This document shows positions 1 through 64,000 of a DNA stretch of 64,000 bases, one piece after another. Source of the stretch: Candidatus Saccharimonadia bacterium (lineage in GTDB: Bacteria > Patescibacteriota > SICC01). The notes beneath the pieces are model-generated. The model was given only the letters and a program-made list of their open reading frames with translations. It did not search any database and had not been told where the DNA came from. The DNA lies in assembly GCA_025449535.1 (NCBI GenBank), contig JANWJF010000001.1, positions 303,344-367,343 on the forward strand, read 5' to 3'. Every line of letters starts with the position of its first letter. The stretch's first letter is position 1. Made by a program: the position numbers and the translations under genes.

Positions 1-3000
1 GTCGCTTTCGACCGGCAGGTCGACCGTTCGTGATCCTCCCGGGTAATCGACCCTGACCCGATAGCTGTCGTACCCCGGAGGCGGCGTGCCGTTCGGGTCG
101 GGGTTCGGTCGGTTGTAATAACCGAGCGTGAGGTCGTACAGACCCGGTTGGACGCCGTCGAGTTGATACGACCAGACCGCCGGAGCGTTGTTGGTACCGC
201 CGCATGCCCCCGGCAAGTTACCCGCTCCACCGCAGAAGAAGGATACGGAGTTGGGGTATGGAGCATAGTTGGTCAAACAGTAGGCATTGGCGCCGCTGCC
301 GAACTGGCAGCTATTGAAGTCACTGCCGTCCTTCGTCACCGACACGTTGTTCAATTGATCCGGATTCGTGCCGAAGTCGAGCTTGTAGCTGGCCTGCCGG
401 TCGTCACCGTTGCTGACCAAGCTCTCCGGGGTGTCGTTGAACCCGTTACTGCGGTTCGGGATCACCCGGGAGACCGTCGGCTGGACCCGCCGTTCCGTCC
501 CGTTATTGTATTGCACGGTGATCGGGAACTGCGGGTTGTCCTGGATCGGCTCGAAGTCACGAACGGAGCCAAGATAGTCGTAGATCTGATACCGCTTGGT
601 CGGCGTCTCGCCGGTGTTCCGGAGCGTCGTCTCCACCTGGACGGTCTGGCCGTCGGTCACGCTGTCCACCACCGCGCCGTTCAGGTCCTTGAACTTCTTG
701 GTGGAACCGGGCGGCAGCAGGTTGGGCCGGCTGTTCTTATGGAAGGTGGCACCGACCGGCGGGCCGAACCGGCGGTAGTTCAACGTGGGTTGGCTGCTGA
801 TCGGTATCGGGTAGCCCGAGTCGACGGTCGCCTGCGGGGTCGAGCGCGACCGGAAGAGGTCGGGGAGGGCGGGCAGCTCCGAGGCGCCGAACCGGTCCTC
901 GCCGCTGGCAGTCCAGGTCACGTCCGCACCTTCCGGCACGTCCTCTTGCAGGAACTGCGTGAGCGTCTTGTTCGGAACGCTCCGGGACGACCCGTTCACG
1001 GTCCAGCTCACGGGGCGCACGTCGTCGCTGGTATAGGTCCGGTTGTTGCCGCTCCCGTAACCGAAGGTACCGAGGTTCTTCAGCCAGCCGCCCCAGCTAT
1101 CACTGTTGAGTCCGCTGCGATTGAAGCTGGTGACGACGTTGGTCTGGCCGTCCTTCGTCCAGCTGATCGCGAAGTATGGCCTGACCTGGTTGTTTTCCGG
1201 GTCTTTCAGGACGATGGCCAGCTTGGAGCAGTTGTAGTTCACGTTGCCCGTGTTGGTAGGATTGTCCGGATCGGCCGAGACGATGGTGGCTACGGGACCC
1301 TTGTTCACGCGGAACTTGATCGCCGTGGTGCATTTTTCGACCGGACCGGGGTTCACGCAGGCCTGCCAGCTGTAATCGGTGTTCGCGCTGAAGGAATTCG
1401 CCTGGATCGGGACGCGGACCTGGTGCGTGCCCGGCTCGACGCTCGTGTTCGACTGGTCCACGCGGGCGACTTCTGCTCCGGTACTGGACTGGTTTACCTT
1501 GACGTAGTGCTTCACCAGCCCGCGGGTCTCCGGCAGCGTGTACTGGAACGCGAAGTCGATGATCGCATCGCCGGCGTTGTTCATCTGGTTGAAGTTCTCC
1601 CGACCGTTATACCGATACTTGCTGGCGTGCGCCTTGGGCGTGTGCGCGGTCACGCTGAAGTCGCTCGTGGCCAGGCACGTCGGCCAGTAGCCCCAGGTGA
1701 ACGGTGCGCCGCCTTGGGCCAGGTTGTTACCGTCGTTCCAGTGGTGGATGTTCAGTCGCCCGCTGAGCTGTTCGTTCGCCCGCCACAGGGGGTTGTAGGG
1801 GCTTCCTGACCCGGCCGGGTCATCAAGGAAAATGGCCCAGCCAGGATATGTCTGCCAAGTACCGCTGATTGAGCCGGAAGCAACTTGTCTCGTGATGCCA
1901 TCCGGCGCGTTATACCCGGAAGTGTTCAGGGTATTATTTTCGTTAAGCGTCCCGACGCGTTCCACCTGCGCGCTGATGTTTTGGTCACCCCCAGGTGGAG
2001 AACCTTCGAAGCCGCCCTTCGGTCCGTCATCCCAGTCGGCATTACCGGCCTTGAAGAGAGCTCCGCCACCGGTGGTTGGGCCGGTCGGTCCTCGATGTGA
2101 CCAATCATCGTTGCGACAACCTGCACCACCGGCCTGGAATCGCAAACCACGATACGACTGCCCGGCCATTTCCTCATACTCATGGTCCTGGCCCGGTTCG
2201 TTCGCCACCCCACCTACCGGACCGTAGCTGATATTGAAGGCAATGCTTGCCGGCGCACTGGCTAGGAACTCCTTGCCACCAGCCAGGTCCTTTGGGGTCC
2301 GCAAGAAATAGCCGTTCTGAACCAGGGGACCGCTAAGGTTGCGGCTCTGGGCGTACCGAAGGATGATTTCCGGACAGCGTAGCGTGTTAAAAGCAGCTGC
2401 GGTCAAGCAGCCATTATTCCAACTACCACTTCTTTGAATGTCATTAACATGTGTTACATACCCGTTAAAGCGGTCTTCAAAGACGACTGCCTTGATGAGA
2501 AACACGTAGTTTCCATTCAGGTTAGGGTAGTACGAACTCAAGAATCGTGCATTCGAATCCACTTGGCTAAAGTTTGCAGAACTCATTGTTCCGCTGTCAC
2601 CCCTAGTCCGGTCATAACAGAAGACGCGGTGCTCGTGTTCCTTGTTGGTGTGCGAACCGGGAACATCGCCGTGACTGTCCCAACCCCAGAAGCAGTTGCC
2701 ACCATCCTCGTAGTTACCAGGACTCCGATTGTAAAAAAGGAGCTTATTCGGATTCAGAAGATAGAAACCAGGGAATTGCTGAAAAGGACTTGCATCCGTA
2801 ATTCCTGAACCGTCCGGGTGGGAATGTGGGTCTCCGTAGTCGACCGGAACGTTATTTTCAAACTGGGCGCAGAAGACCCGGTGCGAATGCCAATTACCCG
2901 CATCGTCGCCAGCGAGAGTATTCGGGCTGTTCCACTCCCAGAAGCAGTTACCGCCACTTTGGTGGTTCGAAGGATGAGTATTGAACTGATCGTGGGCATT

Positions 3001-3909
3001 GTCGTTACGGTTCAACTGGCTCGTGTCTCCGGTTGCACTGCCGGGATTGTGGTGACTGTGCGGAGTATCACCGCTCCCGTGCTCATGACTCCGGCTATCG
3101 TTCTGCCTCACCACCCAAACGTGATCCGCCTCATGGACATGTGATTTATTGCTGTCCCGGCGCACGTTAAAGCATGGATCACTCCCCCCATACCGCCCAT
3201 CACAACTATCCTGTGCGGAGCCATCAAGCGTAATGCGGTTGGTTATTGCGCTACTGGGACCACCTGGTGCGTTAATTTCAAAGGTCCGCCAACAGGGGCC
3301 GTTGGCGCCATTCGAGTACTTGCACCCGTCGTTCGAATTCGGCTGGTTGTCGGTCGTCGGGAATATGTTACGGTCGCGCGGGTTGATGACGCCAAGCAAT
3401 CGGCCATCGCGCGGTCCGCCATTGGATAGCTGATACACCTCGTAGTACACCGGCGAGAGGAATCCGTGCTTCTTGGAAAGGTCGACTATCCCATCCACAT
3501 TCGCCTGGTCGCGGTCGTATCGATCCTGGCCTCCTGAATTATCCTCCGACCAATGCCCGCCACGCAGTTCAAACTTCACATTGGGCGTGGTCGAGCTGAC
3601 GAAGTACTGGTTTGGCATATAGGCCGCGGCCGTTCCGGCCGAGCCGGTCGGTCGATGCACAACTTGGCTCAAGCGCGCGCCGTCGGGAGAAGATCCACCG
3701 GGCGCTGATTGAGGCAATTGGTCCACCGGCGGGTGGATGACGTAATTATTGCGTTGGATCGTGTCACGAAAGTCGCCACCGCCCGTCCCCCACCACTGGT
3801 CACCCATGGCCAACGCGGTAGGTATCATCACGCCCAACACGAGAACGGCAACTGTGAGCAGTCGCCATCGCATGCGAAGTTTTCGTACCTGTAGTAGTTT
3901 TTGTTTCAT
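1..3909 (-). CDS. Very large secreted protein, C-terminus beyond the window edge (at least 1300 aa). N-terminal signal peptide, Asn/Gly-rich, with His-rich patches and repeated Cys/Trp modules (GGNCFWxW...HRVFC).
   Basis: Manual translation of the minus strand from ATG at 3907-3909 (MKQKLLQVRKLRMRWRLLTVAVLVLGVMIPTALA...) found no stop down to position 1. The frame fits the window edge. It is absent from the ORF track only because it lacks an in-window stop. High GC3 in most of the gene. Confidence 0.6.
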   Translation of the reverse strand, partial: MKQKLLQVRKLRMRWRLLTVAVLVLGVMIPTALAMGDQWWGTGGGDFRDTIQRNNYVIHPPVDQLPQSAPGGSSPDGARLSQVVHRPTGSAGTAAAYMPNQYFVSSTTPNVKFELRGGHWSEDNSGGQDRYDRDQANVDGIVDLSKKHGFLSPVYYEVYQLSNGGPRDGRLLGVINPRDRNIFPTTDNQPNSNDGCKYSNGANGPCWRTFEINAPGGPSSAITNRITLDGSAQDSCDGRYGGSDPCFNVRRDSNKSHVHEADHVWVVRQNDSRSHEHGSGDTPHSHHNPGSATGDTSQLNRNDNAHDQFNTHPSNHQSGGNCFWEWNSPNTLAGDDAGNWHSHRVFCAQFENNVPVDYGDPHSHPDGSGITDASPFQQFPGFYLLNPNKLLFYNRSPGNYEDGGNCFWGWDSHGDVPGSHTNKEHEHRVFCYDRTRGDSGTMSSANFSQVDSNARFLSSYYPNLNGNYVFLIKAVVFEDRFNGYVTHVNDIQRSGSWNNGCLTAAAFNTLRCPEIILRYAQSRNLSGPLVQNGYFLRTPKDLAGGKEFLASAPASIAFNISYGPVGGVANEPGQDHEYEEMAGQSYRGLRFQAGGAGCRNDDWSHRGPTGPTTGGGALFKAGNADWDDGPKGGFEGSPPGGDQNISAQVERVGTLNENNTLNTSGYNAPDGITRQVASGSISGTWQTYPGWAIFLDDPAGSGSPYNPLWRANEQLSGRLNIHHWNDGNNLAQGGAPFTWGYWPTCLATSDFSVTAHTPKAHASKYRYNGRENFNQMNNAGDAIIDFAFQYTLPETRGLVKHYVKVNQSSTGAEVARVDQSNTSVEPGTHQVRVPIQANSFSANTDYSWQACVNPGPVEKCTTAIKFRVNKGPVATIVSADPDNPTNTGNVNYNCSKLAIVLKDPENNQVRPYFAISWTKDGQTNVVTSFNRSGLNSDSWGGWLKNLGTFGYGSGNNRTYTSDDVRPVSWTVNGSSRSVPNKTLTQFLQEDVPEGADVTWTASGEDRFGASELPALPDLFRSRSTPQATVDSGYPIPISSQPTLNYRRFGPPVGATFHKNSRPNLLPPGSTKKFKDLNGAVVDSVTDGQTVQVETTLRNTGETPTKRYQIYDYLGSVRDFEPIQDNPQFPITVQYNNGTERRVQPTVSRVIPNRSNGFNDTPESLVSNGDDRQASYKLDFGTNPDQLNNVSVTKDGSDFNSCQFGSGANAYCLTNYAPYPNSVSFFCGGAGNLPGACGGTNNAPAVWSYQLDGVQPGLYDLTLGYYNRPNPDPNGTPPPGYDSYRVRVDYPGGSRTVDLPVESD

Positions 3910-3934
3910 CGGCAGGAACGTGGGAAATTAGGAA

Positions 3935-3963
3935 ACTATACCATCTATCTGCCTTAGTGTCAA
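3935..3963 (-). promoter_or_regulatory. Sigma70-like promoter for the giant secreted protein gene: TTGACA, 17-nt spacer, TATAGT.
   Basis: On the minus strand, TTGACA (3963-3958) and TATAGT (3940-3935) are separated by exactly 17 nt. This places a TSS about 18 nt upstream of the ATG at 3909. Confidence 0.45.
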
Positions 3964-4122
3964 TCTACCTGAATTTCGGCAAAACAAAAACCGCCGCGAC
4001 TCTGGACATCACCTCCTTTCAGGAGAGTAGACGATAAAGAGTGTACTATGCGTCGGTTCTTGCCAGTCGAAGCCCCGTAAATAGGACTGCAACTTAGATT
4101 GACGACCAAGCGGAACGCTTGA

Positions 4123-4923
4123 TCATGCGCGTTTCTTGACTACCCGGTTTGCACCATTCTTTCCCACGACCCACGGGATCTCGATGGCTCGCATGCGTCC
4201 TTGTATGGGGTCGTAATAGGGAACGGACTGTTGGACGCCCATCGACAGCCCGCACCATTTGTACTCGCGGCATAGCCGCTGGACGGCTTTCCGGTTAATA
4301 ACGAGCCGGATGACGTGATGGTTGCCAGCTGGCAATGCAGGCAACTCGACAACCTTTCGCTTTTTCTTGGGGTTGCCGACGAGCCTGCCGCCTTCGCGAG
4401 CACCCAGGGTGAGGTCGAACTCATTCTTGATCGTGGTCCGGCCTTCATAACTGACGATCGCCACGAATTGCTTCTTCGTCCTCACGATCCTGGTCTGGAG
4501 ATTATTCACTGAGCCAAGAGTCGACAGCGGGAAACTGAGGCGACCGACCTCATCCTGTGTAGTGGGACCAGACGCTATGGCCACCATGGTGAATGTGTAG
4601 TCTTCATCGGTTGGCCCTAGATCAGCCACCCAGCGACTCATGCCTCCTGGCGGCCCCTGTTCGACAGGGGTAACGCTTCGGATGACGAGAGACGGACCGG
4701 TAAACCCACCGTATTCCGCCACGGGTTCCGTGAGGTCAAAATATTGCGCCTCCGACACAACCCTGAATTCGAGTGACTTCGGCAGTGTTGTCGGCTGGCT
4801 GACGTCCGTCACCAGACAGATCTTGCCGTCTTCCGAGCACTGTTCGGCCTGGGCCGTACCTGCGAGCGCGATGCTGAGGACGAGCCCCAGCAGCGCGATG
4901 GTCTTGAATCGCTTGCTGCTCAT
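4123..4923 (-). CDS. Secreted hypothetical protein (266 aa) with a signal peptide (MSSKRFKTIALLGLVLSIALAGTAQA).
   Basis: ORF 4123..4986 trimmed to the ATG at 4923, which is preceded by a strong SD (AAAGGAGG). Classical signal peptide. Confidence 0.6.
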   Translation of the reverse strand: MSSKRFKTIALLGLVLSIALAGTAQAEQCSEDGKICLVTDVSQPTTLPKSLEFRVVSEAQYFDLTEPVAEYGGFTGPSLVIRSVTPVEQGPPGGMSRWVADLGPTDEDYTFTMVAIASGPTTQDEVGRLSFPLSTLGSVNNLQTRIVRTKKQFVAIVSYEGRTTIKNEFDLTLGAREGGRLVGNPKKKRKVVELPALPAGNHHVIRLVINRKAVQRLCREYKWCGLSMGVQQSVPYYDPIQGRMRAIEIPWVVGKNGANRVVKKRA

Positions 4924-13567: not shown

Positions 13568-14394
13568 TACTTCTTCTTTCGGTTCTTAGGCGCCAGCTTC
13601 CGAGGCTTCGTGGCGGGCCGCTTGCGTGGGGCCTGCCGCTTCTCGGGAACGACCTTGCCGTCGTCCATGTTTAGGACCCGGTCGGCGCGGTCGGCCACCG
13701 AATGGTCATGCGTCACGATCACGAACGTCTGGCCGGTCTGTTCGTTGAGTTCCTGGAGCAGGTCCATCACATCATCGGAAGTCTTGTGGTCGAGCTCGCC
13801 GGTCGGCTCGTCGGCCAGGACCACCGCCGGCGACAGCACCAGCGCCCGGGCCACGGCCACCCGCTGCTGCTCCCCGCCGGAGAGCTGGTTCGGCAAGTGG
13901 TTCTCCCGTTCCAGCATCCCCACCAGGCGCAGCGCCTCGCGGGCCTGCTCGCGGCCGGCCTTCCGCTTGCCACGGGCGTAGCGGAACGGCAGGTAGACGT
14001 TCTCGAACGCCGTCAGCGACGGGATCAGGTTCTTCTGCTGGAAGATCATGCCGACCTCGTTCTGCCGGAACAGCGGGACCTTCCGACGCTTCAGGTCGGT
14101 CACGTCGATTCCTGCGAACTTCACGGTCCCGGAGTCCGGCGTATCCAACAGGCCGATCACGTTGAGCAACGTGGTCTTACCGGAACCGGACGGTCCCATC
14201 AGCGCGACCATCTCGCCCCGTTGGACCTTCAGGCTCACGCCCTTGAGGACGCGGACTGGCTCGGCGCCGCTCTCGTACGTCCGGTGGACGCCGGTGACCT
14301 CCACCATCGGCGGCAGGTCCTTAAGGTCATCCTGCTTGGTGAAGAGCTTGCCCTTCATCCGTTGCGGCTTCTTCTTGCGGAACAAGGCCATCAC
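13567..14394 (-). CDS. ABC transporter ATP-binding protein (MacB/LolD/FtsE-like) with a basic C-terminal tail.
   Basis: Walker A GPSGSGKTT, signature LSGGEQQRVAVARAL, Walker B VLADEPTGELD, H-loop. Start either the ATG at 14394 (ATGA overlap with the permease stop) or 14307 (MVEV...). Confidence 0.85.
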   Translation of the reverse strand: MMALFRKKKPQRMKGKLFTKQDDLKDLPPMVEVTGVHRTYESGAEPVRVLKGVSLKVQRGEMVALMGPSGSGKTTLLNVIGLLDTPDSGTVKFAGIDVTDLKRRKVPLFRQNEVGMIFQQKNLIPSLTAFENVYLPFRYARGKRKAGREQAREALRLVGMLERENHLPNQLSGGEQQRVAVARALVLSPAVVLADEPTGELDHKTSDDVMDLLQELNEQTGQTFVIVTHDHSVADRADRVLNMDDGKVVPEKRQAPRKRPATKPRKLAPKNRKKK

Positions 14395-15593
14395 TCCTCC
14401 CTCAGCACCTTAACCGGCTTGATCCGCGTCGCCCGCCAGGCCGGGTAGAGTCCCGCCAGCACCCCAAGTACCACCGCAAAGCCGATCGACATGACGGCCA
14501 GCTCTGGCGTAAGCAGGAACAGCTCGAGGCCTTGCTGCTTGGTGATCGCATTGACGACGGCGGTCAGCGCCGCGCTGCCGAGGAACCCGAGGACGCCGCC
14601 GATCAGTCCGATCAATCCGGTCTCCGTGACCGTCTCCTTGAGGATGTGTCGCGCCCGGGCGCCGACCACCCGCTTCACGCCGATCTCCTTGCGCCGTTCG
14701 GTCACGCTCATGATCATCGTGTTGATCACGGACAGGCTGCCGACCAGCACCGCGATCAGGGCGCTGCCGAGGACGATCAGGTTGAACACCGCCGAGGCGT
14801 CCTCCAGCGTCTTCTTCAGTTGGTCCGGCGGCGTGCCGTCCACCCCGCTGATCGTCGACTCGATCTTCTCGGTCAGCTTCGTCGAGTCCACGCCCTCCTC
14901 CGGGAAGACGTTAATGTTCGTCACCAGTTCCTCGGTGCTGGTCGTGAACGAGGTGATATCCCGGGAGAGCGCCAGGGCGTCCGTCAGGGTGACCATGTAG
15001 AAGGAGTCCGGATCGGCGGTAGTCCGCTTCAGGATGCCGACCACTTCGAACTGCTTGCCGCGCAACGTGACCGTGTCGCCGACGTCGAGCTGCTTCTTCT
15101 GGACGACGTTCGAGCCGATCACCGTCTTGCCGGTGTCGCCGGCCTTCAGGGCCCGGCCTTCGCCGACCTCAAGCTGGAACTTGTCCTTGGCGGCCTCGGC
15201 TGGCGGCGCACCCTGGATCGTCTCCGGCGAGGACGCCACCGAGAACTCCGCGTCCGGTTCGGCCAGCAGCGACAACGTCGGATACGCCCGGTCCACGCCG
15301 TCGATCACCTCGATCCGGTCGGTGATACTGGACGGCAGCTGCGGCCCCACCGCGAACGGCCCGCCGAAGCCACCGCTGTCCTTAGTGACCAGGATCCGGC
15401 TGCTGAAGTAATCGATGCCGACCTGGATCGACTTGCTGAGGCTCTGCGACAACGCGCCCATCGTGGTCAGCGCGAAGATGCCGATCCCGATACCGAAGAT
15501 GGTCAGGGCGGATCGTGCCTTGCGGCGCCAGATGTTCCGGAGCGCTTCTCTCACAAGGGTTATTGTACCAAGTGGCGTATGATTGGTGCGCAT
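14391..15593 (-). CDS. ABC transporter permease, MacB/FtsX family, with a large periplasmic domain.
   Basis: N-terminal TM helix, a roughly 230-aa extracytoplasmic domain, then the C-terminal FtsX 3-TM bundle ending YPAWRATRIKPVKVLREE. An alternative GTG start lies at 15554. Confidence 0.8.
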   Translation of the reverse strand: MRTNHTPLGTITLVREALRNIWRRKARSALTIFGIGIGIFALTTMGALSQSLSKSIQVGIDYFSSRILVTKDSGGFGGPFAVGPQLPSSITDRIEVIDGVDRAYPTLSLLAEPDAEFSVASSPETIQGAPPAEAAKDKFQLEVGEGRALKAGDTGKTVIGSNVVQKKQLDVGDTVTLRGKQFEVVGILKRTTADPDSFYMVTLTDALALSRDITSFTTSTEELVTNINVFPEEGVDSTKLTEKIESTISGVDGTPPDQLKKTLEDASAVFNLIVLGSALIAVLVGSLSVINTMIMSVTERRKEIGVKRVVGARARHILKETVTETGLIGLIGGVLGFLGSAALTAVVNAITKQQGLELFLLTPELAVMSIGFAVVLGVLAGLYPAWRATRIKPVKVLREE

Positions 15594-16074
15594 GAATGGT
15601 CAAACTGTCGAGATGGCGAACGTTCCAGATAGGACCCGACTGACCTTAGACGTTGTCCGTCAATTAGAAATCATCGCCCTCGCCGAGGCCCTGGTGAATG
15701 CGCGGAGGATCGAGGACGAAGAGTCCCATGATTATTTCATTGAGCAGATTGCCAGGAGCGCGGCCAGTTCCGGTGAATACGAAGTCGCACGGTCCATCGC
15801 CCGGGAAGCCAAAGAATCACAGGTGACCGCATCGCTTGAAGCAAGCTTCGCGCGACAGGAGACCGATAGCGCGACGGAGGAAAATGACGAGGTGTTCGTA
15901 CCGGAACCGACGGATCCGGAACGGGATACCAATCGTTGGTTGGAAATCGCGACGCTGTTCGGAAGTCCTCGCGAAGAAGATGGCACCGTGGCGGCCATCG
16001 CCGACCTGATTCCAACAGATGACATGACCGGCTTGGAGCTATTCCAGACGGTGCTTGAGGCGGAAACGGCATAA
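15589..16074 (+). CDS. Acidic hypothetical protein (about 160 aa).
   Basis: ORF with high GC3, divergent from the ABC operon. No recognisable domain. Confidence 0.4.
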   Translation, partial: RMNGQTVEMANVPDRTRLTLDVVRQLEIIALAEALVNARRIEDEESHDYFIEQIARSAASSGEYEVARSIAREAKESQVTASLEASFARQETDSATEENDEVFVPEPTDPERDTNRWLEIATLFGSPREEDGTVAAIADLIPTDDMTGLELFQTVLEAETA

Positions 16075-16093
16075 GAAGAGCGAGAGGCGCTTT

Positions 16094-16741
16094 TTACTCC
16101 ATTAGACCAAGGGCCGTAGCATCCCGCAGGACCCGGTTCCGGACATTGCTGTCGCCGGACTTCTGAGCCCGACTTAGACATCGTTCCCGGATCGCGGAAT
16201 GCTTGGACCGCAAACCTTCCCGCAGGATCCGGCCGATCCGTTGCTCGCTGTCAAACGTCCGGGCGATATTCAATGCGAGGTTGGCTACTCCCTCGTTCTC
16301 GTTCCGGATACCGGCGCCCACCACCATACTTTGGTTGACGTCCCGCTTAATGTCGTCCACAGCGACCAGGGCCGCATGGGCGACGTACGTATCCGGGGAG
16401 CCGGCGGCGACCATCAAACCATCGCTGCGGTCATTCTCGCCTTCCACCTTGAGCAGGTGTCCGATCGCTTCCCGTCGGAGATCGGGATCTTCCGATGTCC
16501 GGATGACGTGAGTGAACACGTTCGCCCGGTGCTTGTCCAGCTCGAAGAACCGCGCCAGCTGCATACCCTCGCGCGTCGCGTCGCCGCCCTGCTCCACCAA
16601 CTGCCGCGCCATCGGCAGCAGGACCTTGCCCTCCTGCTCGGCACTCCACTTCCCGCCGTCCACGATGTCCTTAAAGAGTAATCGTTCTGCGTATACGAAT
16701 GCCTCGGTGCGAAGCGGGTGGTCGCCTAGTGGTTCGCTCAT
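16094..16741 (-). CDS. HEAT/PBS-lyase-like repeat protein.
   Basis: Repeated alpha-helical pairs of about 30 residues with conserved R/A/G positions, typical of HEAT-like repeats. Confidence 0.55.
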   Translation of the reverse strand: MSEPLGDHPLRTEAFVYAERLLFKDIVDGGKWSAEQEGKVLLPMARQLVEQGGDATREGMQLARFFELDKHRANVFTHVIRTSEDPDLRREAIGHLLKVEGENDRSDGLMVAAGSPDTYVAHAALVAVDDIKRDVNQSMVVGAGIRNENEGVANLALNIARTFDSEQRIGRILREGLRSKHSAIRERCLSRAQKSGDSNVRNRVLRDATALGLME

Positions 16742-16800
16742 AGCGCTGTATTGTCTCGGTCAAACCAGTGAGTGTCAACGAAAAAGAGCGAGGGGCGCGG

Positions 16801-17019
16801 TTACAGACCCTTAAACAGTTCCTCGGCCCTAATTCCCAATCCCTTACATATCGAGTAGACCGTGTTAAGGCTTGGCTTTGCGTTTCCCTGCTCTATGGCC
16901 GCGACATGTTTTTCCGCGAGTCCCGCCAAGTCCGCCAGACGAGCTTGTGTATACCCCTTCTCTTTGCGGTATGTAGCAATTCTTAGCGCAACCTCACTAA
17001 AGAAGTTCCCTCGGTCCAT
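16801..17019 (-). CDS. XRE-family (Cro/CI-type) HTH transcriptional regulator, 72 aa. Low-GC gene with atypical codons.
   Basis: Canonical HTH_3 (YRKEKGYTQARLADLAGLAEKHVAAIEQGNAKPSLNTVYSICKGLGIRAEELF). AGA/AGG/ATA codons are rare elsewhere in the window. Confidence 0.8.
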   Translation of the reverse strand: MDRGNFFSEVALRIATYRKEKGYTQARLADLAGLAEKHVAAIEQGNAKPSLNTVYSICKGLGIRAEELFKGL

Positions 17020-17054
17020 GCCCTAAGGGTAGGCAGATAGGTTGCCAGCTATGC

Positions 17055-17066
17055 TGTAATATTACA
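17055..17066. promoter_or_regulatory. Perfect 12-bp palindrome TGTAATATTACA in the divergent promoter region between the XRE gene and the small secreted-protein gene. Candidate operator.
   Basis: Seen directly. It sits between divergent start codons (17019 and 17108), the usual position of an XRE/Cro operator. Confidence 0.45.
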
Positions 17067-17107
17067 TACTTCCATCAAGAACTATTAATCAACTATAAGG
17101 AGGCTAC

Positions 17108-17485
17108 ATGGGCGAGGAAGTTAAAAAGAATTGGTTCGCGCGCCATAAAGTGCTGACTGGTATCGTCGGGGTAATACTGTTGTTGGGAATCGGTAGCGCA
17201 ATGAGTTCTACTGGGTCGGTAAGTACCGATACAGCAGATCAAAATCAGGGAGCAACACAAGAAGCACCAGTGAAGAAAGAGTCAAAAAAGCTCAGCTCTC
17301 AGGAAATTTATGAAAAAGTTCAGCCAGGCATGACCAAGGAAGAGGTTATCAAAATCGCCGGTCACGATCCGGACAACTGCATTAACTCTGACAGTGGTAC
17401 GTTTGGCTCCTCGGAAACCTGCTCATATGGGACCTTGTCTCTAATTTTCATGAATGGCGAATTAGAGAGTAAGACAAAGCTCTAA
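17108..17485 (+). CDS. Small membrane-anchored/secreted protein with a BamE/SmpA-OmlA-like (DUF3862-type) C-terminal domain. Low GC (about 43%).
   Basis: Strong SD AAGGAGG 5 nt upstream of the ATG. N-terminal TM/signal (VLTGIVGVILLLGIGSA). Motif GMTKEEVIKIAGHDPDNC. Confidence 0.7.
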   Translation: MGEEVKKNWFARHKVLTGIVGVILLLGIGSAMSSTGSVSTDTADQNQGATQEAPVKKESKKLSSQEIYEKVQPGMTKEEVIKIAGHDPDNCINSDSGTFGSSETCSYGTLSLIFMNGELESKTKL

Positions 17486-17497
17486 CTCTCTTTTAAG

Positions 17498-17547
17498 CAA
17501 GCTGCTAATATACAAAGGTGCAGCTTGGTAAGGTTGGTTTTTGTTTT
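17498..17547 (+). terminator. Stem-loop (CAAGCTGC ... GCAGCTTG) followed by a T-rich run between the convergent 17108..17485 (+) and 17546..18733 (-) genes.
   Basis: 8-bp stem with a 14-nt loop, then GTAAGGTTGGTTTTTGTTTT. Weaker than the other terminators here. Confidence 0.35.
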
Positions 17548-18733
17548 ACGACTCCGGCGTCGCGGTCGGGCTCGGGGACGGGGTCGGCGACGGGGTCGCG
17601 TTCTCGCCAGGGATCGGTGCGAACGGATCGCGGCGGCTGGTGGTGGCGGGCTTCAGCGGCGCACCGTACCGGTCGCGTGAAAGGATGCTCCGCCGTTCGT
17701 CGGCACTGAGGTCGATCGCCGGCGGGTTGTAGCCGGCGCCTTCCACGTCCGCCTGGGCCTTCTGGTTGAAGTACCAGAGCGTCCCGTAGGTCGACGTGAC
17801 GACGAGGACGGTCACGCCGGTCACCATCAGCGAGACCACGTGGCGCGAGGCGAACATCCGCGGAGTCAGCCGATTGTACTGCTTGAAGAAGTACAGCACC
17901 GCCCCCGGGATGAACAGGAACGTGACGACCAGCCGCCACTGGGTCTGTTCGACGGCCGTCGGATAGTCGCGGCGATAGCTGTCACGTAGCATCCGGACCC
18001 AGAAGGCCGTCGCGGCGAACGCCAGCACGGCCAGTGCGGCCACGACCGTCAGCTTCAGCGGAGAGAACGAGAGCACCATATCCCAGGCCTGCGCCGGCAG
18101 GCCGGCCAACGACCCGAGGTCCATGCCGCCCGCCTGTCGCAGGCCGAAGTGTTCTCCGGATACCACGGTGGCGCCGGCGACCAGCAGAACGCCTGCTCCC
18201 AGCAACGCCAGAAGTTCCCGATGCGCCTTATGGTCCGGGGTCATCGTGATCGAATCAAGCGCCTGCCGCTTCGCCCGCCTGGCGACGCGTTTGCGAACCG
18301 GCGTGGCAGCCCAGAGCGCGATCCGGCCGAGGAAGGACCAGGCGCCGAGCGCCCAGTAGGCAACGAGGGCCTCGACGGCCCGTCCGGACCGACCAGGTGT
18401 GCAGAAGACCGTGCCAGCCACCGAAGCGACCTCGGAGGCGATCTGCTTCAGTAGACCTTCTCCTGCCCGCGCGGTGCGCCGGGCAGGCTCGGCGACGGCG
18501 CGTTCCGCCGCGACCGCCTTGCGCGCGACGTCTCGCTCCACGGATGCGACCGCCCGGGTCGCCTTCCGTTCGTCCCGCCGGATCTGTCGAACTACGCGCG
18601 CGAACGCGCGCTCGGCGGCTTCGACGAACCCGACGACGCCGGCGTCCGCCTTGGCGACCAGCGCCTCCACGGAACGGTCGAACCGACGGAGTGTCCGTTT
18701 GGATGCCCTGCCGATCTGTGCGAACGGTCTCAT
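17546..18733 (-). CDS. Polytopic membrane protein (395 aa) immediately downstream of pilO. It has N-terminal amphipathic Arg/Ala repeats and a C-terminal Pro/Thr/Ser tail.
   Basis: Start is 2 nt after the pilO stop, so it is probably co-transcribed. Several predicted TM helices. No recognisable domain. Confidence 0.5.
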   Translation of the reverse strand: MRPFAQIGRASKRTLRRFDRSVEALVAKADAGVVGFVEAAERAFARVVRQIRRDERKATRAVASVERDVARKAVAAERAVAEPARRTARAGEGLLKQIASEVASVAGTVFCTPGRSGRAVEALVAYWALGAWSFLGRIALWAATPVRKRVARRAKRQALDSITMTPDHKAHRELLALLGAGVLLVAGATVVSGEHFGLRQAGGMDLGSLAGLPAQAWDMVLSFSPLKLTVVAALAVLAFAATAFWVRMLRDSYRRDYPTAVEQTQWRLVVTFLFIPGAVLYFFKQYNRLTPRMFASRHVVSLMVTGVTVLVVTSTYGTLWYFNQKAQADVEGAGYNPPAIDLSADERRSILSRDRYGAPLKPATTSRRDPFAPIPGENATPSPTPSPSPTATPES

Positions 18734-49527: not shown

Positions 49528-51534
49528 TTACTTCTGCTCTTCCTTGCCGTCCGCCTCGGACGTGTCATCCTCGGGCTTCGCGTCGTCCGAGCCGGACTGG
49601 TCGTCGGAAGCGTCGGCGTCGGAACCATCGGACGCGCCTTCTGATCCATCGTCCGTGCTCTGGTCGGCCGAGGTCGTATGGTCCACGCCGTCTCCGGAGG
49701 ACTCTTCCGTCTGTCCCTGCTCAGTGCCACCACTCTGCTGGTAGATCGCTGCGCCAACCTTCTGGATCGACTCGGACAGCTCGTTCGTCTTCGTCTTGAT
49801 CGCCTCGACGTCCTCGCCGTCCATTACCTCGCGAAGCGCTTTGATCTTCTCGTCGACCTCGTTCTTATCGGTCTCCGAGACCTTGGCGCCGGCGTCCTTG
49901 ACCGTCTTCTCGCTGGAATACACGAGATTGTCGGCCGCGTTCCGGGCTTCGATCAGTTCCGCCTTCTTGGCGTCGTCGGACTCGTGCTCCTGCGCCTCCT
50001 TGCGCATGTTCTCGACCTCCGTGTCGGAAAGGCCGCTGGAGCCCTGGATCGTGATCTTCTGCTCCTTGCCGGTGCCCTTGTCCTTGGCAGAGACGTTCAG
50101 GATGCCGTTGGCATCGATGTCGAAGGTGACCTCGATCTGCGGCACGCCGCGCGGGGCCGGCGGGATTCCGTCCAGTACGAACCGTCCGAGCGACTTGTTG
50201 TCCCCGGACATCTTGCGTTCGCCCTGGAGGACGTGGACGTCCACCGAGTTCTGGTTGTCGGCCGCTGTCGAGAAGACTTGGCTCTTGCTGGTCGGGACGG
50301 TGGTGTTCCGTTCGATCAGCGGCGTGGACACGCCGCCGAGCGTCTCAATTCCGAGCGTCAGCGGGGTTACGTCCAGAAGCAGCAGGTCCTTCACGTCGCC
50401 GGAGAGGACGCCGCCCTGGATGGCCGCGCCGAGCGCGACCGCCTCGTCGGGATTCACGTTCTGGTTCGGCTCCTTGCCAAAAATCTCCTTCACCGCCGCG
50501 TGGACCGCCGGCATCCGGGTCATGCCGCCGACCAGGATCACCTCGTCGATGTCGCTGGTCTTGAGACTCGCGTCCTCGAGCGCCTTCTTGCAGGGCTCCT
50601 GGGTCCGCTTCACGAGGTCCGCGGTGAGCTGCTCGAGCTTCGCCCGGGTCAGCGTCAGGTTGAGGTGCTTGGGACCGGAGTCGTCCGCGGTGATAAACGG
50701 GATGTTGATCTCGGATTCGCCGGTGGTGGAGAGCTCGATCTTCGCCTTCTCCGCGGCTTCCTTGAGCCGCTGCAGGGCCTGCCGGTCCTGCGACAGGTCC
50801 ACTCCCTGGTCCTTCTTGAACTCCGCCACCAGGTGGTCGATGATCGCCTGGTCGAAGTCGTCGCCGCCGAGGTGGGTGTCGCCGTTAGTCGACTTCACCT
50901 CGAAGACCCCGTCGCCGAGCTCCAGGATGGTGATGTCGAAGGTCCCGCCGCCGAGGTCGAACACGGCGATCTTCTCTTCCTTCTTCTTATCGAGTCCGTA
51001 GGCCAGCGAGCTCGCCGTCGGCTCGTTGATGATCCGCTTCACGTTCAGTCCGGCGATCTTGCCGGCGTCCTTGGTGGCGTTCCGCTGCGAGTCGTTGAAG
51101 TACGCCGGAACGGTCACCACCGCGTCGGTGACCTTCTCTCCGAGGTACGCTTCGGCGTCCGTCTTGATCTTCTGCAGGATCATCGCGGAGATCTCCTGCG
51201 GCGAGTAGGACTTCTCGCCCATCTTCACCTTCACGTCGCCGTTGGACGCCTCCTCCAGCTTGTACGGAAGCAGCTTCGCCTCCTTCTGGACGATCGGGTC
51301 CTTGAACTTCCGGCCCATCAGCCGCTTCACGGAGAATATCGTGTTCTCCGGGTTGGTGACCTGCTGCCGCCGGGCGACCTGCCCGACCAGCCGTTCCTTG
51401 TTCTTCCCGAGCGCGACGACGGACGGGGTCAGCCGGCCGCCTTCCTTGTTCGGGATGATCTTCGACTCGCCGCCCTCAAGCACGGCCGCCGCCGAGTTGG
51501 TGGTACCGAGGTCGATACCGATGATTTTAGTCAT
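49528..51534 (-). CDS. dnaK: Chaperone DnaK (Hsp70) with an acidic Asp/Ser/Glu-rich C-terminal tail.
   Basis: [41 protein letters not shown]. The SD AAAGGAG lies within the 3' end of the upstream small gene. Confidence 0.95.
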
Positions 51535-51535
51535 A

Positions 51536-51871
51536 TTAACTAGCTCCTTTCTCTAATGGTGCCATGACTCCGAATTCTCTCATGGCCTCAATAATACGAA
51601 TCTTTTGTAATTCCAAACCCTTTCCTGTTCTTTCGGCCTGTTTTAAAGCCGGAATAATTTCTTGAAGACTTCTTGTGAACCTGCCTCCGCCCATTACTTC
51701 ATTCAGGGTAGGGTCACCTCCGGAGTGAGCAGCTTGGCCTACCATTTCTTGGAAGTGTTCTGACCAACTCTGGCCTTTCTCCTTGATTCTTTCTTCAACC
51801 GCTTCTAACAGGGAAGCCACAGCCCGGGCTTCTAGCAGAGCTTCTTCTGATCTTTCACTATCTTCGCTCAT
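51536..51871 (-). CDS. Small protein (111 aa) of unknown function, encoded by a low-GC (about 48%), atypical-codon segment between grpE and dnaK.
   Basis: Overlaps the grpE 3' end by 14 nt and ends 1 nt before the dnaK ATG. AGA/TTA/AAA/ATA codons contrast with the flanking 65% GC genes. Confidence 0.55.
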
Positions 51872-52490
51872 TTTCCTTCTTTCCGCTTGATACTTGCACC
51901 TTCGCCGGGCGGACGACCTTGTCGCCCATCCTGTACCCGGCCGCGAACTCCTTGCTCACGACGTCCTTGTCGTACTCGTCGCTCGGCTCGTGGCCGAGCG
52001 CCTCATGGAGTTCGGGGTCGAACGGCTGCCCGACGGCTTCGACCCGTTCGATCCCGAGTTCCGTGAGAATGTCCGCGAACTGCTTCCGGATGCCTTCGAT
52101 GCCCGCGTACCATTGGTCTCCCTTGATCGCCTCCGGCACATGTTCCGCCGCCCGGTCGAAGTTGTCGATCACCGGCAGCAACTGCACGGCAAGATCGCCG
52201 TGGGCATCCTGGACCATCTGCAGGCGTTCCTTCTCCATCCGCTTCTTGAAGTTCGTGAAGTCGGCCTGGAGCCGCGCCATCTGCCCGCGCAGATCCTCCG
52301 CTTCGGGAGACGGACCGGCGTATCCGGCGGCTTGGTTGGCCTGGTCGGCCGTTTTCCCGGTCCGCTTGTCCGAGTCCTTGGCCGGATCGCGCTCGAGGCG
52401 TTGGCCCTTCTTCTTGATCGTGACCTTCGGACCCTTGGGCTGGTTCTGATCCCCCGGCTCGGAGGCCGGGCGGTGCTTATCCGTAGACAC
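51858..52490 (-). CDS. grpE: Nucleotide exchange factor GrpE with a basic N-terminal extension.
   Basis: RLQADFTNFKKRMEKE, LLPVIDNFDRA, C-terminal beta domain. 14-nt overlap with hrcA. Confidence 0.9.
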   Translation of the reverse strand: MSTDKHRPASEPGDQNQPKGPKVTIKKKGQRLERDPAKDSDKRTGKTADQANQAAGYAGPSPEAEDLRGQMARLQADFTNFKKRMEKERLQMVQDAHGDLAVQLLPVIDNFDRAAEHVPEAIKGDQWYAGIEGIRKQFADILTELGIERVEAVGQPFDPELHEALGHEPSDEYDKDVVSKEFAAGYRMGDKVVRPAKVQVSSGKKENERR

Positions 52491-62140: not shown

Positions 62141-62986
62141 TCAGAGTAAACTTTCTTGGTTAGTAGTATCTTGTTTTGCCAGCTCGACCGGTGCGGTCGG
62201 CTTGGCGTCCTGGTTCAACATCTTGCGCACTTTCAGCTTGAAGACCGGTTCGATCTCCGGACTTTCTTCCGGCAACTCCCCGATCTTCTCAAGCAACTTC
62301 GGGATTTGCTTGAAGTCGTCGAGCAACGTGTCCTTCAGCGAGCCCGTGTAGAGCGCGGCGGCGGGATGGTACACCGGAAGGTAGGCTTGGCCGCGGAACC
62401 GCTTCGCCCGGCCGTGGTCGGCCGAGATCTTGAGGTCGGGCAGGAACCAGTCCATCGCGTGGCGGCCCAACAGCACGATCAGCTTCGGCCGGATGGCCGT
62501 AATCTGGTCGCGCAGCCAGGGCCAGGAGTGCTCGATCTCCTCCGGCTTGGGATCGCGGTTCCCCGGCGGCCGGCCCTTCAGGACGTTGGCAATGAACACG
62601 TCGTCCCGCTTCATGCCGATCGAGGCGATCAGCTCGTCGAGCAGTTTTCCCGCCGCGCCGACGAACGGCCGGCCCTGCAGGTCTTCGTTCTTGCCCGGCG
62701 CCTCGCCGATGAACAGCACGTCCGCGTTCGGGTTGCCTTCGCCCGGTACCATGTTCGTGGCCTTTTCACACGGCTCGAACCCGCACCCCTTGTGGGCGCG
62801 GATTTCGTCCGCGATCTGGTCGATTGTCTTCAACTGCTTCTGTTCCGCCCCGCACGACGGACCAGCAACATATCCTCCTACTTGAGGAGGGCGTTGTCGG
62901 TTGCCGTAGCTGATGGCGTCGGAGTCTTCCTGGAGAAGGACCCCGTCGCCGCGAGGCTGTGAGCGAGCGCGGTGCTTGGAAACCAA
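62141..62986 (-). CDS. Uracil-DNA glycosylase, family 4 (4Fe-4S type), with N- and C-terminal extensions.
   Basis: GEAPGKNEDLQGRPFVGAAGKLLDELI and a Cys cluster (CGAEQ...CGFEPC). Ends 1 nt before the rnj start. Confidence 0.8.
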   Translation of the reverse strand: MVSKHRARSQPRGDGVLLQEDSDAISYGNRQRPPQVGGYVAGPSCGAEQKQLKTIDQIADEIRAHKGCGFEPCEKATNMVPGEGNPNADVLFIGEAPGKNEDLQGRPFVGAAGKLLDELIASIGMKRDDVFIANVLKGRPPGNRDPKPEEIEHSWPWLRDQITAIRPKLIVLLGRHAMDWFLPDLKISADHGRAKRFRGQAYLPVYHPAAALYTGSLKDTLLDDFKQIPKLLEKIGELPEESPEIEPVFKLKVRKMLNQDAKPTAPVELAKQDTTNQESLL

Positions 62987-63180
62987 GTGACGGCGCTCCT
63001 GTTAAGTGATGCCATGGTACCCCATCAGGCCTTTCGTGTCAATGAAGGAGTTTATCCGAATAGAACATTTTTCCGCTAACCCCATGCAAGAAGGAAGCCA
63101 GATGACTTCCCGTAATCGTCATACGTTTGACAACCGGAGTAGAAGCCCATATTAAGTAAGCAGCCGGAACATCTCAAAAA

Positions 63181-64000
63181 ATGAAAAACGCCATCGAACG
63201 AATACGCACGATACGCTTTCCCTTCCGGGCGTCGATTGCCGCTGTCATCGCGATAGGCATTACTGCCGCAATCGTGACATTTGCCGCCCCGGGGCAATAT
63301 CAGAACAAGTACCCCAACATCATTTACGTGATCACGGATGACCAGACGTTCGAGTCGCTCAACAAGATGAAGTTCCTCACCCAACAACCGGATTGGATCA
63401 AGTTCAGCAGGGCGTATGCGAACACCCCAATCTGTTGTCCCGCCCGCGCTACGCTGTTGTCCGGTCAGTATTCCCACCACACGGGGGTAGAAACCAACAA
63501 GGAAGGCTGGAAGTTCAACGACCGATCGACCGTCGCCACTTGGCTCAAGGTCGTCGGGTACCGGACGGGCTTCGTCGGCAAGTACTTGAACGAATACCCG
63601 TGGAGCGAGCCGGGTACTTTCGTACCGCAAAGCGCGGTAAGGCCGGCCAACTACCGCCCACCGGGGTGGAATACATGGGTCGCGTTTTCCGGACCGCCCG
63701 GCTACTTGAACTACACGCTCAATATAAATGGCACACTGGTCAATAAGGGTGGCGAGGAGGCGGACTACTCCACCGATGTCCTGACTGACCAAGCGGCCCG
63801 GTTCATCTACGACAACAGCCGCGGACCGGCTCGCGAGCAACATCTGTTCCTGGTGTATGCCCCGTACGCGCCGCATACTCCGTCCACGCCGGCCGAACGT
63901 CATAGCGGTCTGTTTAAAGGCCTGAGCATTCCGCACGCTCCGAACTACAACGAGACGGACATTAGTGATAAGCCGAAGTGGTTACAGGAAAACCACGCGC
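63181..64000 (+). CDS. Sulfatase (formylglycine-dependent arylsulfatase family), 5' part only. The gene continues past the window edge.
   Basis: Manual translation from the ATG at 63181 found no stop to 64000. Signal peptide/TM, YVITDDQ, CCPARATLLSG (C-x-P-x-R FGly motif). Absent from the ORF track for lack of an in-window stop. Confidence 0.7.
   Translation, partial: MKNAIERIRTIRFPFRASIAAVIAIGITAAIVTFAAPGQYQNKYPNIIYVITDDQTFESLNKMKFLTQQPDWIKFSRAYANTPICCPARATLLSGQYSHHTGVETNKEGWKFNDRSTVATWLKVVGYRTGFVGKYLNEYPWSEPGTFVPQSAVRPANYRPPGWNTWVAFSGPPGYLNYTLNINGTLVNKGGEEADYSTDVLTDQAARFIYDNSRGPAREQHLFLVYAPYAPHTPSTPAERHSGLFKGLSIPHAPNYNETDISDKPKWLQENHA

Follow-up and report, generated by a model that had tools for sequence, protein, structure and literature searches.

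The BLIP-like superfamily comprises BLIP, SmpA_OmlA/BamE, PepSY, DUF2874 and DUF3192; its members are located in the periplasm or outside the cell and presumably act through binding to partner proteins (PMC2954215). The locus described here adds a small, probably regulated and apparently mobile member to this group. It lies in a stretch of 64,000 nt (the window) from contig JANWJF010000001.1 of a Candidatus Saccharimonadia bacterium (positions 303,344 to 367,343; assembly GCA_025449535.1). Within this window, a low-GC islet of 745 bp (16801–17545) carries two divergent genes, one for a 72-aa helix-turn-helix (HTH) protein of the XRE/Cro-CI type and one for a 125-aa protein which is predicted to be exported and to carry a BLIP-like domain. 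With moderate confidence we regard the islet as a cassette of two genes that is self-contained and was acquired horizontally; its XRE protein would control an exported BLIP-like protein acting on the cell envelope. Our literature search returned no paper linking Saccharibacteria, XRE and BLIP-like proteins, and a search on BtiO gave unrelated matches only.

The gene for the exported protein (17108–17485, plus strand) encodes an NWFxRHK motif and a membrane helix (residues 9–30), followed by a disordered linker of low complexity (31–60) and a single C-terminal domain (61–125) with two conserved cysteines, C91 and C105. In an AlphaFold model the residues 61–125 have a predicted local distance difference test score (pLDDT) above 90 and form two helices and four strands. 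The arrangement is that of the BLIP-like fold, a helix-loop-helix packed on a four-stranded antiparallel sheet, and structure matches, including those of Foldseek against the PDB, agree with it. An exhaustive search among 1.84 billion cluster representatives yielded a family of at least 91 clusters (E <1e-3), which have in common the NWFxRHK motif with a hydrophobic helix, a low-complexity linker and a C-terminal domain of about 65 residues. This domain reads roughly YdkvQxGMTkxeV...AG..p.nC.eSe..G.G..e.C.YG....vtf.nGKV.SKtK, the two cysteines being nearly invariant. A profile of 42 members (alignment A2) matched solved BLIP chains (1jtg_B and others) with an E value of 2e-7 over both BLIP repeats, and within this match the cysteine pair of the family (NC...C) is aligned to that of BLIP (ENC...C), which is homology at the profile level. 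In addition, 10 of the 42 members match the Pfam family BLIP at E ≤0.01 (best E 6.2e-6). By sequence profile the closest relative is Streptomyces BLIP, with BamE and OsmE as relatives in fold. Profile homology, the AlphaFold model and the structure matches together place the domain in the BLIP-like superfamily, as far as sequence and modelled structure can tell.

The initial annotation had described a membrane-anchored protein with a BamE/DUF3862-like domain. A predicted membrane anchor and the fold of the BamE superfamily were recovered, but by profile and Pfam searches the domain is BLIP-like and neither BamE nor DUF3862; the latter family was matched neither by the 125-aa protein (E ≤0.1) nor by a single one of the 42 family members (E ≤0.01). 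A small lipoprotein-like module, which had been suggested as well, is not what we find. The N-terminal sequence (...LLLGIGSAMSSTGS) provides no lipobox cysteine, and since there is no cysteine before residue 91 the protein is not a lipoprotein. Three family members possess cytoplasmic zinc ribbons ahead of the helix. Because of these relatives and of the conserved juxtamembrane motif, the helix probably is a retained membrane anchor rather than a cleaved signal peptide.

The divergent gene (16801–17019, minus strand) encodes the regulator. Its product matches Pfam HTH_3 (PF01381), the sole domain, with 46 bits at a cut-off of 23 (E 5.3e-12, residues 14–68), and HTH_19, HTH_31 and HTH_26 as additional Pfam families, so that the Cro/CI-type HTH regulator proposed at the outset holds above the family threshold. 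Similarities to phage repressor families of PHROG (E 1e-9 to 2e-11), to RstR-like proteins and to C-control proteins (including 'Control_protein' of PADLOC) are all generic or below the family cut-offs. The best NCBIfam match is the Y4mF/HipB-type antitoxin subfamily TIGR03070 (E 1.8e-13), and together with the small, mobile two-gene format it could suggest a type II toxin-antitoxin or addiction pair, composed of an XRE antitoxin and a small membrane toxin. However, the 50.2 bits of this match stay below the cut-off of 71.65, the two genes are divergent and not co-transcribed, the partner is predicted to be a well-folded, cysteine-paired extracytoplasmic domain without a match to a toxin family, and members of its family widely occur without an XRE partner. 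Searches with PADLOC and NCBIfam gave no defence or toxin match for the 125-aa protein and only generic, sub-cut-off matches for the HTH protein. An addiction pair is therefore barely credible.

Both genes have counterparts on a contig of 1,083 bp (L007), which allowed for a comparison by codon position. The HTH proteins are 82% identical, with 86–89% identity at codon positions 1 and 2 and 44% at position 3; for the 125-aa protein the identity is 64%, with 76–80% at positions 1 and 2 and 36% at position 3. Because the first two positions are kept while the third is only 36–44% identical, this comparison marks both as real genes under purifying selection, the synonymous sites of which are saturated. 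It is against this saturation in both flanking genes that a block in the divergent intergenic region stands out as conserved: at 17020–17073, next to the HTH start, 49 of 54 bp (91%) are identical to L007, and over the following 34 nt identity is 51%.

Within the conserved block a consensus scan found a sigma-70-like promoter candidate for the 125-aa gene (17042–17070, plus strand), consisting of TTGCCA, a 17-nt spacer and CATACT. It has 9 of 12 consensus matches, and both hexamers are identical in L007. Two dyads coincide with this site. The first, dyad A (17037–17052, ATAGGTTGCCAGCTAT, of the form ATAG(G/C)TTGCCAGCTAT), overlaps the -35-like hexamer; it has one mismatch in the window and is perfect in L007 (ATAGCTTGCCAGCTAT). 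The second, dyad B (17055–17066), is a perfect 12-bp palindrome, TGTAATATTACA, of the form TG(T/C)AATATTACA, which occupies the spacer of the promoter candidate and extends over the first two bases of the -10-like hexamer. This palindrome occurs once in the window, even with two mismatches allowed, and may be an operator. Further downstream follows the near-perfect Shine-Dalgarno sequence that had been noted before, AAGGAGG (17097–17103, plus strand), 4 nt in front of the ATG of the 125-aa gene. L007 and three further copies of the pair (L006, L055 and L054) have an equivalent motif, GGAGG or GGAA.

At the same position other copies of the module have dyads or repeats of their own: GTAGGCTATAGCCTAC in L059, ATTAGGTAGCCTAAT in L006 and three CTKAC-WTAW-GTMAG sites in L055. 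A common operator sequence for all module copies was considered and rejected, as the dyads differ between copies and their position alone is conserved. A repeat search with arms of at least 10 nt returned nothing in the intergenic regions of the modules. Two of these regions, in L055 (3889–4000) and L054 (127–225), share GCTGACATAAGTAAGC, and L054 has at least two sites related to CTKAC-WTAW-GTMAG. These sites are candidates for an operator type different from that of the window.

From these features a model for the function of the cassette can be derived. A dimer of the 72-aa XRE protein would most likely bind one or both dyads of the conserved block (17037–17066). As the promoter-like site and both dyads lie inside this block, with the dyads overlapping the promoter-like site of the 125-aa gene, binding would, in the simplest model, occlude this site and repress that gene rather than activate it, and the XRE protein probably represses its own gene, too. 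The N-terminal helix would anchor the 125-aa protein in the membrane, its N-terminus facing the cytoplasm and its C-terminus the exterior, so that one BLIP-like domain, stabilised by a disulfide, is displayed outside the cell. In analogy to other members of the BLIP-like superfamily, this domain may bind and block, or modulate, another extracytoplasmic protein. Among possible partners, an enzyme of the cell wall would be likeliest, be it a serine penicillin-binding/beta-lactamase-fold protein or a peptidoglycan hydrolase.

The composition of the islet is clearly foreign to its surroundings, as the initial annotation had stated. In windows of 300 bp it forms the deepest GC trough of the entire 64 kb (0.423 compared to a mean of 0.625 with a standard deviation of 0.050, hence about 4 standard deviations low), and in windows of 200 bp the GC content is 0.435–0.51 between about 16800 and 17600 and 0.59–0.72 on both flanks. 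At third codon positions the GC content (GC3) amounts to 0.55 in the HTH gene and to 0.49 in the 125-aa gene, whereas neighbouring genes have 0.84–0.90 and the mean of 68 open reading frames (ORFs) in the window is 0.77. The imported DNA was delimited to 16801–17545 by comparison of both junctions with relatives: to the left a terminator arm abuts the HTH stop codon (16801), and to the right the homology of the relatives resumes at the stop codon of orf395 (17546).

The window proteins were mapped by tblastn onto six related GTDB species representatives (L008–L012 and L014), the MacB permeases of which are 83–84% (L008, L009), 76–77% (L010–L012) and 54% (L014) identical to that of the window. 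The closest relatives, found via this MacB-type permease, are metagenome-assembled genomes (MAGs) labelled Candidatus Saccharibacteria or Patescibacteria. All six retain the order MurLig-ABC-MacB ... orf395-PilO-PilN-YebC-RuvC, and none of them gave a tblastn match to the HTH protein, to the 125-aa protein or to the products of the two ORFs left of the islet, orf163 and orf215. In the relatives where it was read (L008, L009, L011), the interval between MacB and orf395 measures about 2.2 kb and codes for a secreted protein of 188–207 aa and a protein of 433–457 aa with an M23-peptidase-type HLHYQL motif; the M23 assignment is a by-eye reading of this motif. Deviant composition and absence from the syntenic site of the relatives, taken together, identify the islet as horizontally acquired, as judged from sequence comparison. 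The divergent pair had been interpreted in this way from the beginning, with the proviso that syntenic orthologues of the same composition, or a 125-aa frame lacking conservation and expression, would speak against it. No such orthologues were found and the frame is conserved in its family of at least 91 clusters.

Between the M23 stop codon and the MacB start, L008 and L009 have an intrinsic terminator, namely a long hairpin with a T-run behind it on the coding strand; in L009 the hairpin folds with -63 kcal/mol (z about -8.5 to -8.8). A 19-nt arm motif is identical in L007, L008 and L009 and lies there within the complete hairpin. The window keeps one hairpin arm only, and its local fold is no better than that of shuffled sequences. 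This surviving arm with its T-run, AAAAAGAGCGAGGGGCGCGG on the plus strand, constitutes the left junction of the islet (16781–16800, minus strand). The motif GAGCGAGGGGCGCGG was considered as a cassette end or attachment (att) site and was rejected, because the hairpin to which it belongs is present in relatives without the cassette; it is an arm of the native terminator hairpin and hence host sequence. The stable hairpin of the relatives spans about 85 nt (9905–10010 in L009, about 9910–10000 in L008 and 815–925 in L007), and the changes in its inner stem between L009 and L007 apparently preserve pairing (GGUCUGCGGACC and GGUUUUCGAAUC, respectively). Its role may extend beyond termination, for instance to that of a regulatory RNA ahead of the transporter operon.

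By its near-identical hairpin and M23 C-terminus, L007 is a close relative of L009. It carries the XRE/BLIP-like pair as an insert of about 732 bp, with the MacB 5' block on one side and the intact hairpin on the other, thus at another point of the same interval than the window. This bears on the possibility that the genes are native and vertically inherited, with a low GC content due to selection or small size and with losses in the relatives instead of transfer. Indeed, the identities between window and L007 (82% and 64%) are in the range of those of host proteins compared with L008 and L009 (MacB 83–84%, orf395 61–64%). However, a resident gene with saturated synonymous sites should have reached the host GC3 of about 0.85, and the values are 0.49–0.55 in the window and 0.62–0.64 in L007. 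The two copies also sit at different points relative to the ancestral terminator, the pair is lacking from six of six syntenic relatives, and other copies are found in unrelated contexts. Purely vertical inheritance is thus highly improbable.

The GC content of the module equals that of its host in low-GC hosts solely (0.47 vs 0.47 in L055, 0.42 vs 0.415 in L059), whereas it deviates in the window (0.466 vs 0.626), in L007 (0.514 vs 0.616) and in L006 (0.439 vs 0.556). This points to low-GC donors of the module. Since its GC3 in the window is below that of L007, the comparison further suggests that the window lineage acquired the module later than, and separately from, L007.

The two genes recur as a unit. 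A divergent XRE gene accompanies the gene for the BLIP-like protein in six out of the seven closest homologues with upstream DNA, namely in the window, L007, L006, L054, L055 and L059; in the seventh, L056, there is no HTH gene within 279 bp upstream. In L006 the partner is 48% identical to the 125-aa protein, the divergent HTH gene codes for 66 aa, and the pair is flanked by genes for a DUF3761 protein and a deaminase. The partners in L055, L054 and L059 are 43–47% identical and each has a divergent XRE gene, in unrelated contexts. Further searches for module copies added little: a scan of JGI metagenomes found one distant unpaired relative (L057), a word-indexed search with the family alignment found eight proteins only and was swamped by low-complexity candidates, and a search with the HTH protein returned itself alone. 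Two distant unpaired members, P0050 (L051, 4001–5748) and P0014 (L060, 3001–4246), are each located tail-to-tail with a transposase gene of the IS1595 family. The MAG that contains P0050 is also the source of L010, a relative of the window organism.

Some contexts could also fit an envelope-integrity or stress factor of the BamE/OsmE type, serving as an accessory of the envelope or of the neighbouring type IV pilus, with the XRE protein as a stress-responsive switch. The islet abuts the orf395-PilO-PilN genes; the distant unpaired member P0026 (113 aa; L052, 3177–4342) is divergent from a pilin-like (N_methyl) gene in a locus with prepilin peptidase/PilD and PilC-like genes; and distant members without XRE are in housekeeping-like contexts, such as the one in L057, which adjoins MurT/GatD-like genes. 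Yet the gene is absent from the six related species with the same pilus operon, and therefore the 125-aa protein is not a core part of pilus or envelope. In the window, the islet came to lie beside the pilus genes through insertion into an interval that is variable, and the pilin context in L052 which echoes it may be a coincidence. Furthermore, an outer membrane, a BAM partner and a lipobox are all lacking, the regions examined yielded no BAM partner genes, and the profile affinity is to BLIP and not to BamE. An envelope factor of this kind is, on balance, unlikely.

A further alternative is a remnant of prophage immunity, the XRE protein being a former CI/Cro-type repressor and the membrane protein a superinfection-exclusion or moron product which would keep phages from adsorbing, or their DNA from entering, at the envelope. 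It draws on the repressor matches of the HTH protein mentioned above and on weak matches of the 125-aa protein to the 'BLIP' moron phrog_6148 (E 5.8e-4) and to Sie-like families (E 0.004–0.025). These are stronger in the distant unpaired member P0039 (phrog_6148 E 2.5e-7, Sie-like families about 1e-6), which is encoded on a phage-like contig with many small co-directional ORFs (L049). Foldseek against viral models (BFVD) moreover returned phage proteins of the same size and fold that are annotated as BLIP or lipoprotein, for instance the 'BLIP' of Bacillus phage Sam46 (133 aa, E 1.7e-4). However, around the copies in the window, L007, L006 and L059 there are no phage genes, integrase or att repeats, the Sie-like matches are limited to the N-terminal helix and linker, and the insert of L007 measures just 732 bp with clean boundaries at gene ends. 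No match at the DNA or protein level was obtained in INPHARED (50,697 phage records) and none in IMG/VR, where a pattern scan gave no confirmed relative; blastn of 16760–17560 against phages and plasmids and tblastn of the 125-aa protein against phages were negative, too. Thus, no signature of a plasmid or a defence module, nor of the phage remnant or abortive-infection module which the initial annotation had entertained, emerged from the phage and plasmid searches and PADLOC, and an origin as prophage immunity is rather improbable.

Returning to the cassette with an XRE-controlled envelope protein, several observations tell against it or weaken parts of it. The 125-aa protein itself scores below the Pfam cut-offs, with 15.5 bits for BLIP (PF07467; cut-off 26.7) and 17.8 bits for BamE/SmpA_OmlA (PF04355; cut-off 23.2, residues 64–85 alone). 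It has one domain of about 65 residues after helix and linker in place of the tandem two-domain architecture of BLIP, and a single domain cannot form BLIP's two-domain concave binding surface. BamE and OsmE share the fold but are structural or stress lipoproteins and not inhibitors. No candidate target gene adjoins the cassette in any context examined. The promoter scan relied on a sigma-70-like consensus, and as promoters of the candidate phyla radiation are not validated, the site is a candidate. For the HTH gene the same scan found no promoter-like site. The palindrome is statistically weak alone: when the 88-bp intergenic region is shuffled, 2.3% of the shuffles contain a perfect palindrome of 12 bp, and about 9% have arms of at least 6 nt if spacers of 0–4 nt are allowed. 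The palindromic operator of the initial annotation hence stands as a perfect and unique 12-bp sequence, but it is only moderately beyond chance, has a second dyad next to it and is not strictly conserved, reading TGCAATATTACA with a mismatch in L007. Finally, no recombinase family was found in the flanking genes, and around 16801–17545 there are no inverted or direct repeats and no target-site duplication beyond chance level. None of the alternatives is favoured by the tests run, considering the lack of phage or plasmid matches and of a defence or toxin family as well as the arguments from composition and synteny.

The surroundings of the islet are variable beyond the islet itself. From the left, the genes are those for a Mur ligase, an ABC ATPase and the MacB/FtsX permease (14391–15593), then orf163 (plus strand), orf215 (minus strand) and the HTH gene (minus strand); to the right of the latter follow the 125-aa gene (plus strand), orf395, PilO and PilN (all minus strand), and YebC and RuvC (both plus strand). 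The matches to Pfam PilO (E 9.5e-10) and PilN (E 3.9e-8) bear out that the islet lies beside a pilNO operon. All six syntenic relatives lack both orf163 (15583–16074, plus strand; GC3 0.63) and orf215 (16094–16741, minus strand; GC3 0.75), for which no significant family match was obtained; orf215 has a weak match to HEAT_2 (E 0.01). A second, diverged copy of the terminator arm, AAGAAGAGCGAGAGGCGC, is located at 16073–16090 between the stop codons of orf163 and orf215. The orf215 segment is thereby flanked by 18-nt direct repeats, AAGAAGAGCGAGAGGCGC and AAAAAGAGCGAGGGGCGC (16781–16798), identical at 16 of 18 positions. Of 100 shuffles, one reproduced the two arm matches seen in the window, and in the relatives the arm motif is one arm of a single complete hairpin. 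The arm repeats may be a recombination scar or an att-like core. Since orf163 and orf215 are missing from the relatives as well, the whole interval 15573–17545 appears to be a hotspot with a history of repeated rewriting, possibly via site-specific events at the arm core or by homologous exchange between relatives.

These repeats permit a more far-reaching version, which we consider very unlikely. The XRE/BLIP-like pair would be a recombinase-free mini-cassette circulating in Saccharibacteria that lands repeatedly in the MacB-pilus terminator hotspot, possibly using the arm AAAAGAGCGAGGGGCGC as recombination core, and its protein would be an immunity-type inhibitor shielding the wall of the episymbiont from a peptidoglycan-targeting enzyme, which could be its own, that of the host or that of a competitor. 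Two copies of the AAAAGAGCGAGGGGCGC arm flank orf215 in the window, and the same interval of the relatives contains an M23 peptidase gene.

At its right end the islet has an AT-rich 3' tail (17484–17545, plus strand) with a hairpin stem (17498–17505 / 17520–17527) followed by a U-rich run. The fold has -16.7 kcal/mol (z -1.5) and 16 of 200 shuffles fold equally well, making it a weak candidate for a terminator-like element, which ends just before the orf395 stop codon (17546–17548, minus strand). The adjacent orf395 (17546–18733, minus strand) codes for a 395-aa membrane protein with a Pro/Ser/Thr-rich tail (...TPES) and no family match. It follows PilO directly, in the window as in each of the six relatives (35–64% identity), and may be an uncharacterised component of the pilus assembly operon of Saccharibacteria. 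On the other side, the MacB-type permease probably starts with a GTG near 15554, in agreement with a 387-aa JGI gene call, rather than with the ATG at 15593; the homology of the relatives is lost upstream of a block ending in ...ttattgtaccaa. A protein identical to the 125-aa protein is on record from the 'Patescibacteria group bacterium' MAG GCA_036560925.1 and from JGI and Logan contigs of up to 0.81 Mb.

Elsewhere in the window a 111-aa ORF (51536–51871, minus strand) with a GC3 of 0.38, a local 300-bp GC minimum of 0.44 and no Pfam match sits between a GrpE-like gene (51858–52490) and a DnaK-like gene (49528–51534), and may be another small foreign insert, here within a chaperone operon. 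The other low-GC stretches (2212–3034, 3690–4247 and 62894–63448; minimum 0.467–0.477) are without confident ORFs, family matches or Rfam matches. An Rfam scan of the window found two tRNAs only, both far from the islet.

The Patescibacteria, Saccharibacteria among them, live attached to host bacteria and have very small genomes. Given this life style, the few accessory genes they possess likely play a role at the cell surface, in conflicts between these bacteria and their hosts, phages or competitors. Against this background the islet would be an XRE-regulated accessory gene for an exported protein of the BLIP superfamily, an ordinary islet of a regulator plus an accessory gene for which no unusual mechanism is demonstrated. 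It offers a minimal example of recent gene gain, having defined limits, a conserved regulatory region and a predicted exported protein from a superfamily of protein inhibition, and it points to a variable hotspot beside pilus genes. Identification of the target of the BLIP-like protein would suggest a function for at least 91 uncharacterised protein clusters.

Compared with known systems, the regulatory half of the cassette resembles generic autoregulated divergent XRE pairs, such as C-protein units and Cro/CI switches, in its 72-aa protein consisting of HTH_3 only and in a divergent promoter region with dyad symmetry; it differs from them by the lack of nearby restriction-modification or lysogeny genes and by specific family scores which are all below the cut-offs. 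With the phage 'BLIP' morons (PHROG 6148) and the membrane-anchored superinfection-exclusion proteins beside prophage repressors it has in common the size, the layout of helix, linker and small domain, a Cro/CI-type regulator alongside, and the accessory and mobile character. In contrast to these, the window copy and its close homologues are without phage context and the matches are weak (E 5.8e-4). The BamE/OmlA/OsmE lipoproteins (PF04355) are approached through the weak Pfam match at residues 64–85, but the 125-aa protein has no lipobox cysteine, scores below the gathering threshold and has a profile closer to BLIP. From BLIP, BLIP-I and BLP of Streptomyces (PF07467) and the 'putative BLIP' 3d4e of Streptococcus mutans it is set apart by a sub-cut-off Pfam score, by one domain instead of tandem domains, by a membrane helix with the NWFxRHK motif that would tether it whereas BLIP is freely secreted, and by its pairing with an XRE regulator. 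It shares with them the domain of helix-loop-helix and four-stranded sheet, a family profile that matches both repeats, the aligned cysteine pair and, as predicted here, the extracytoplasmic location.

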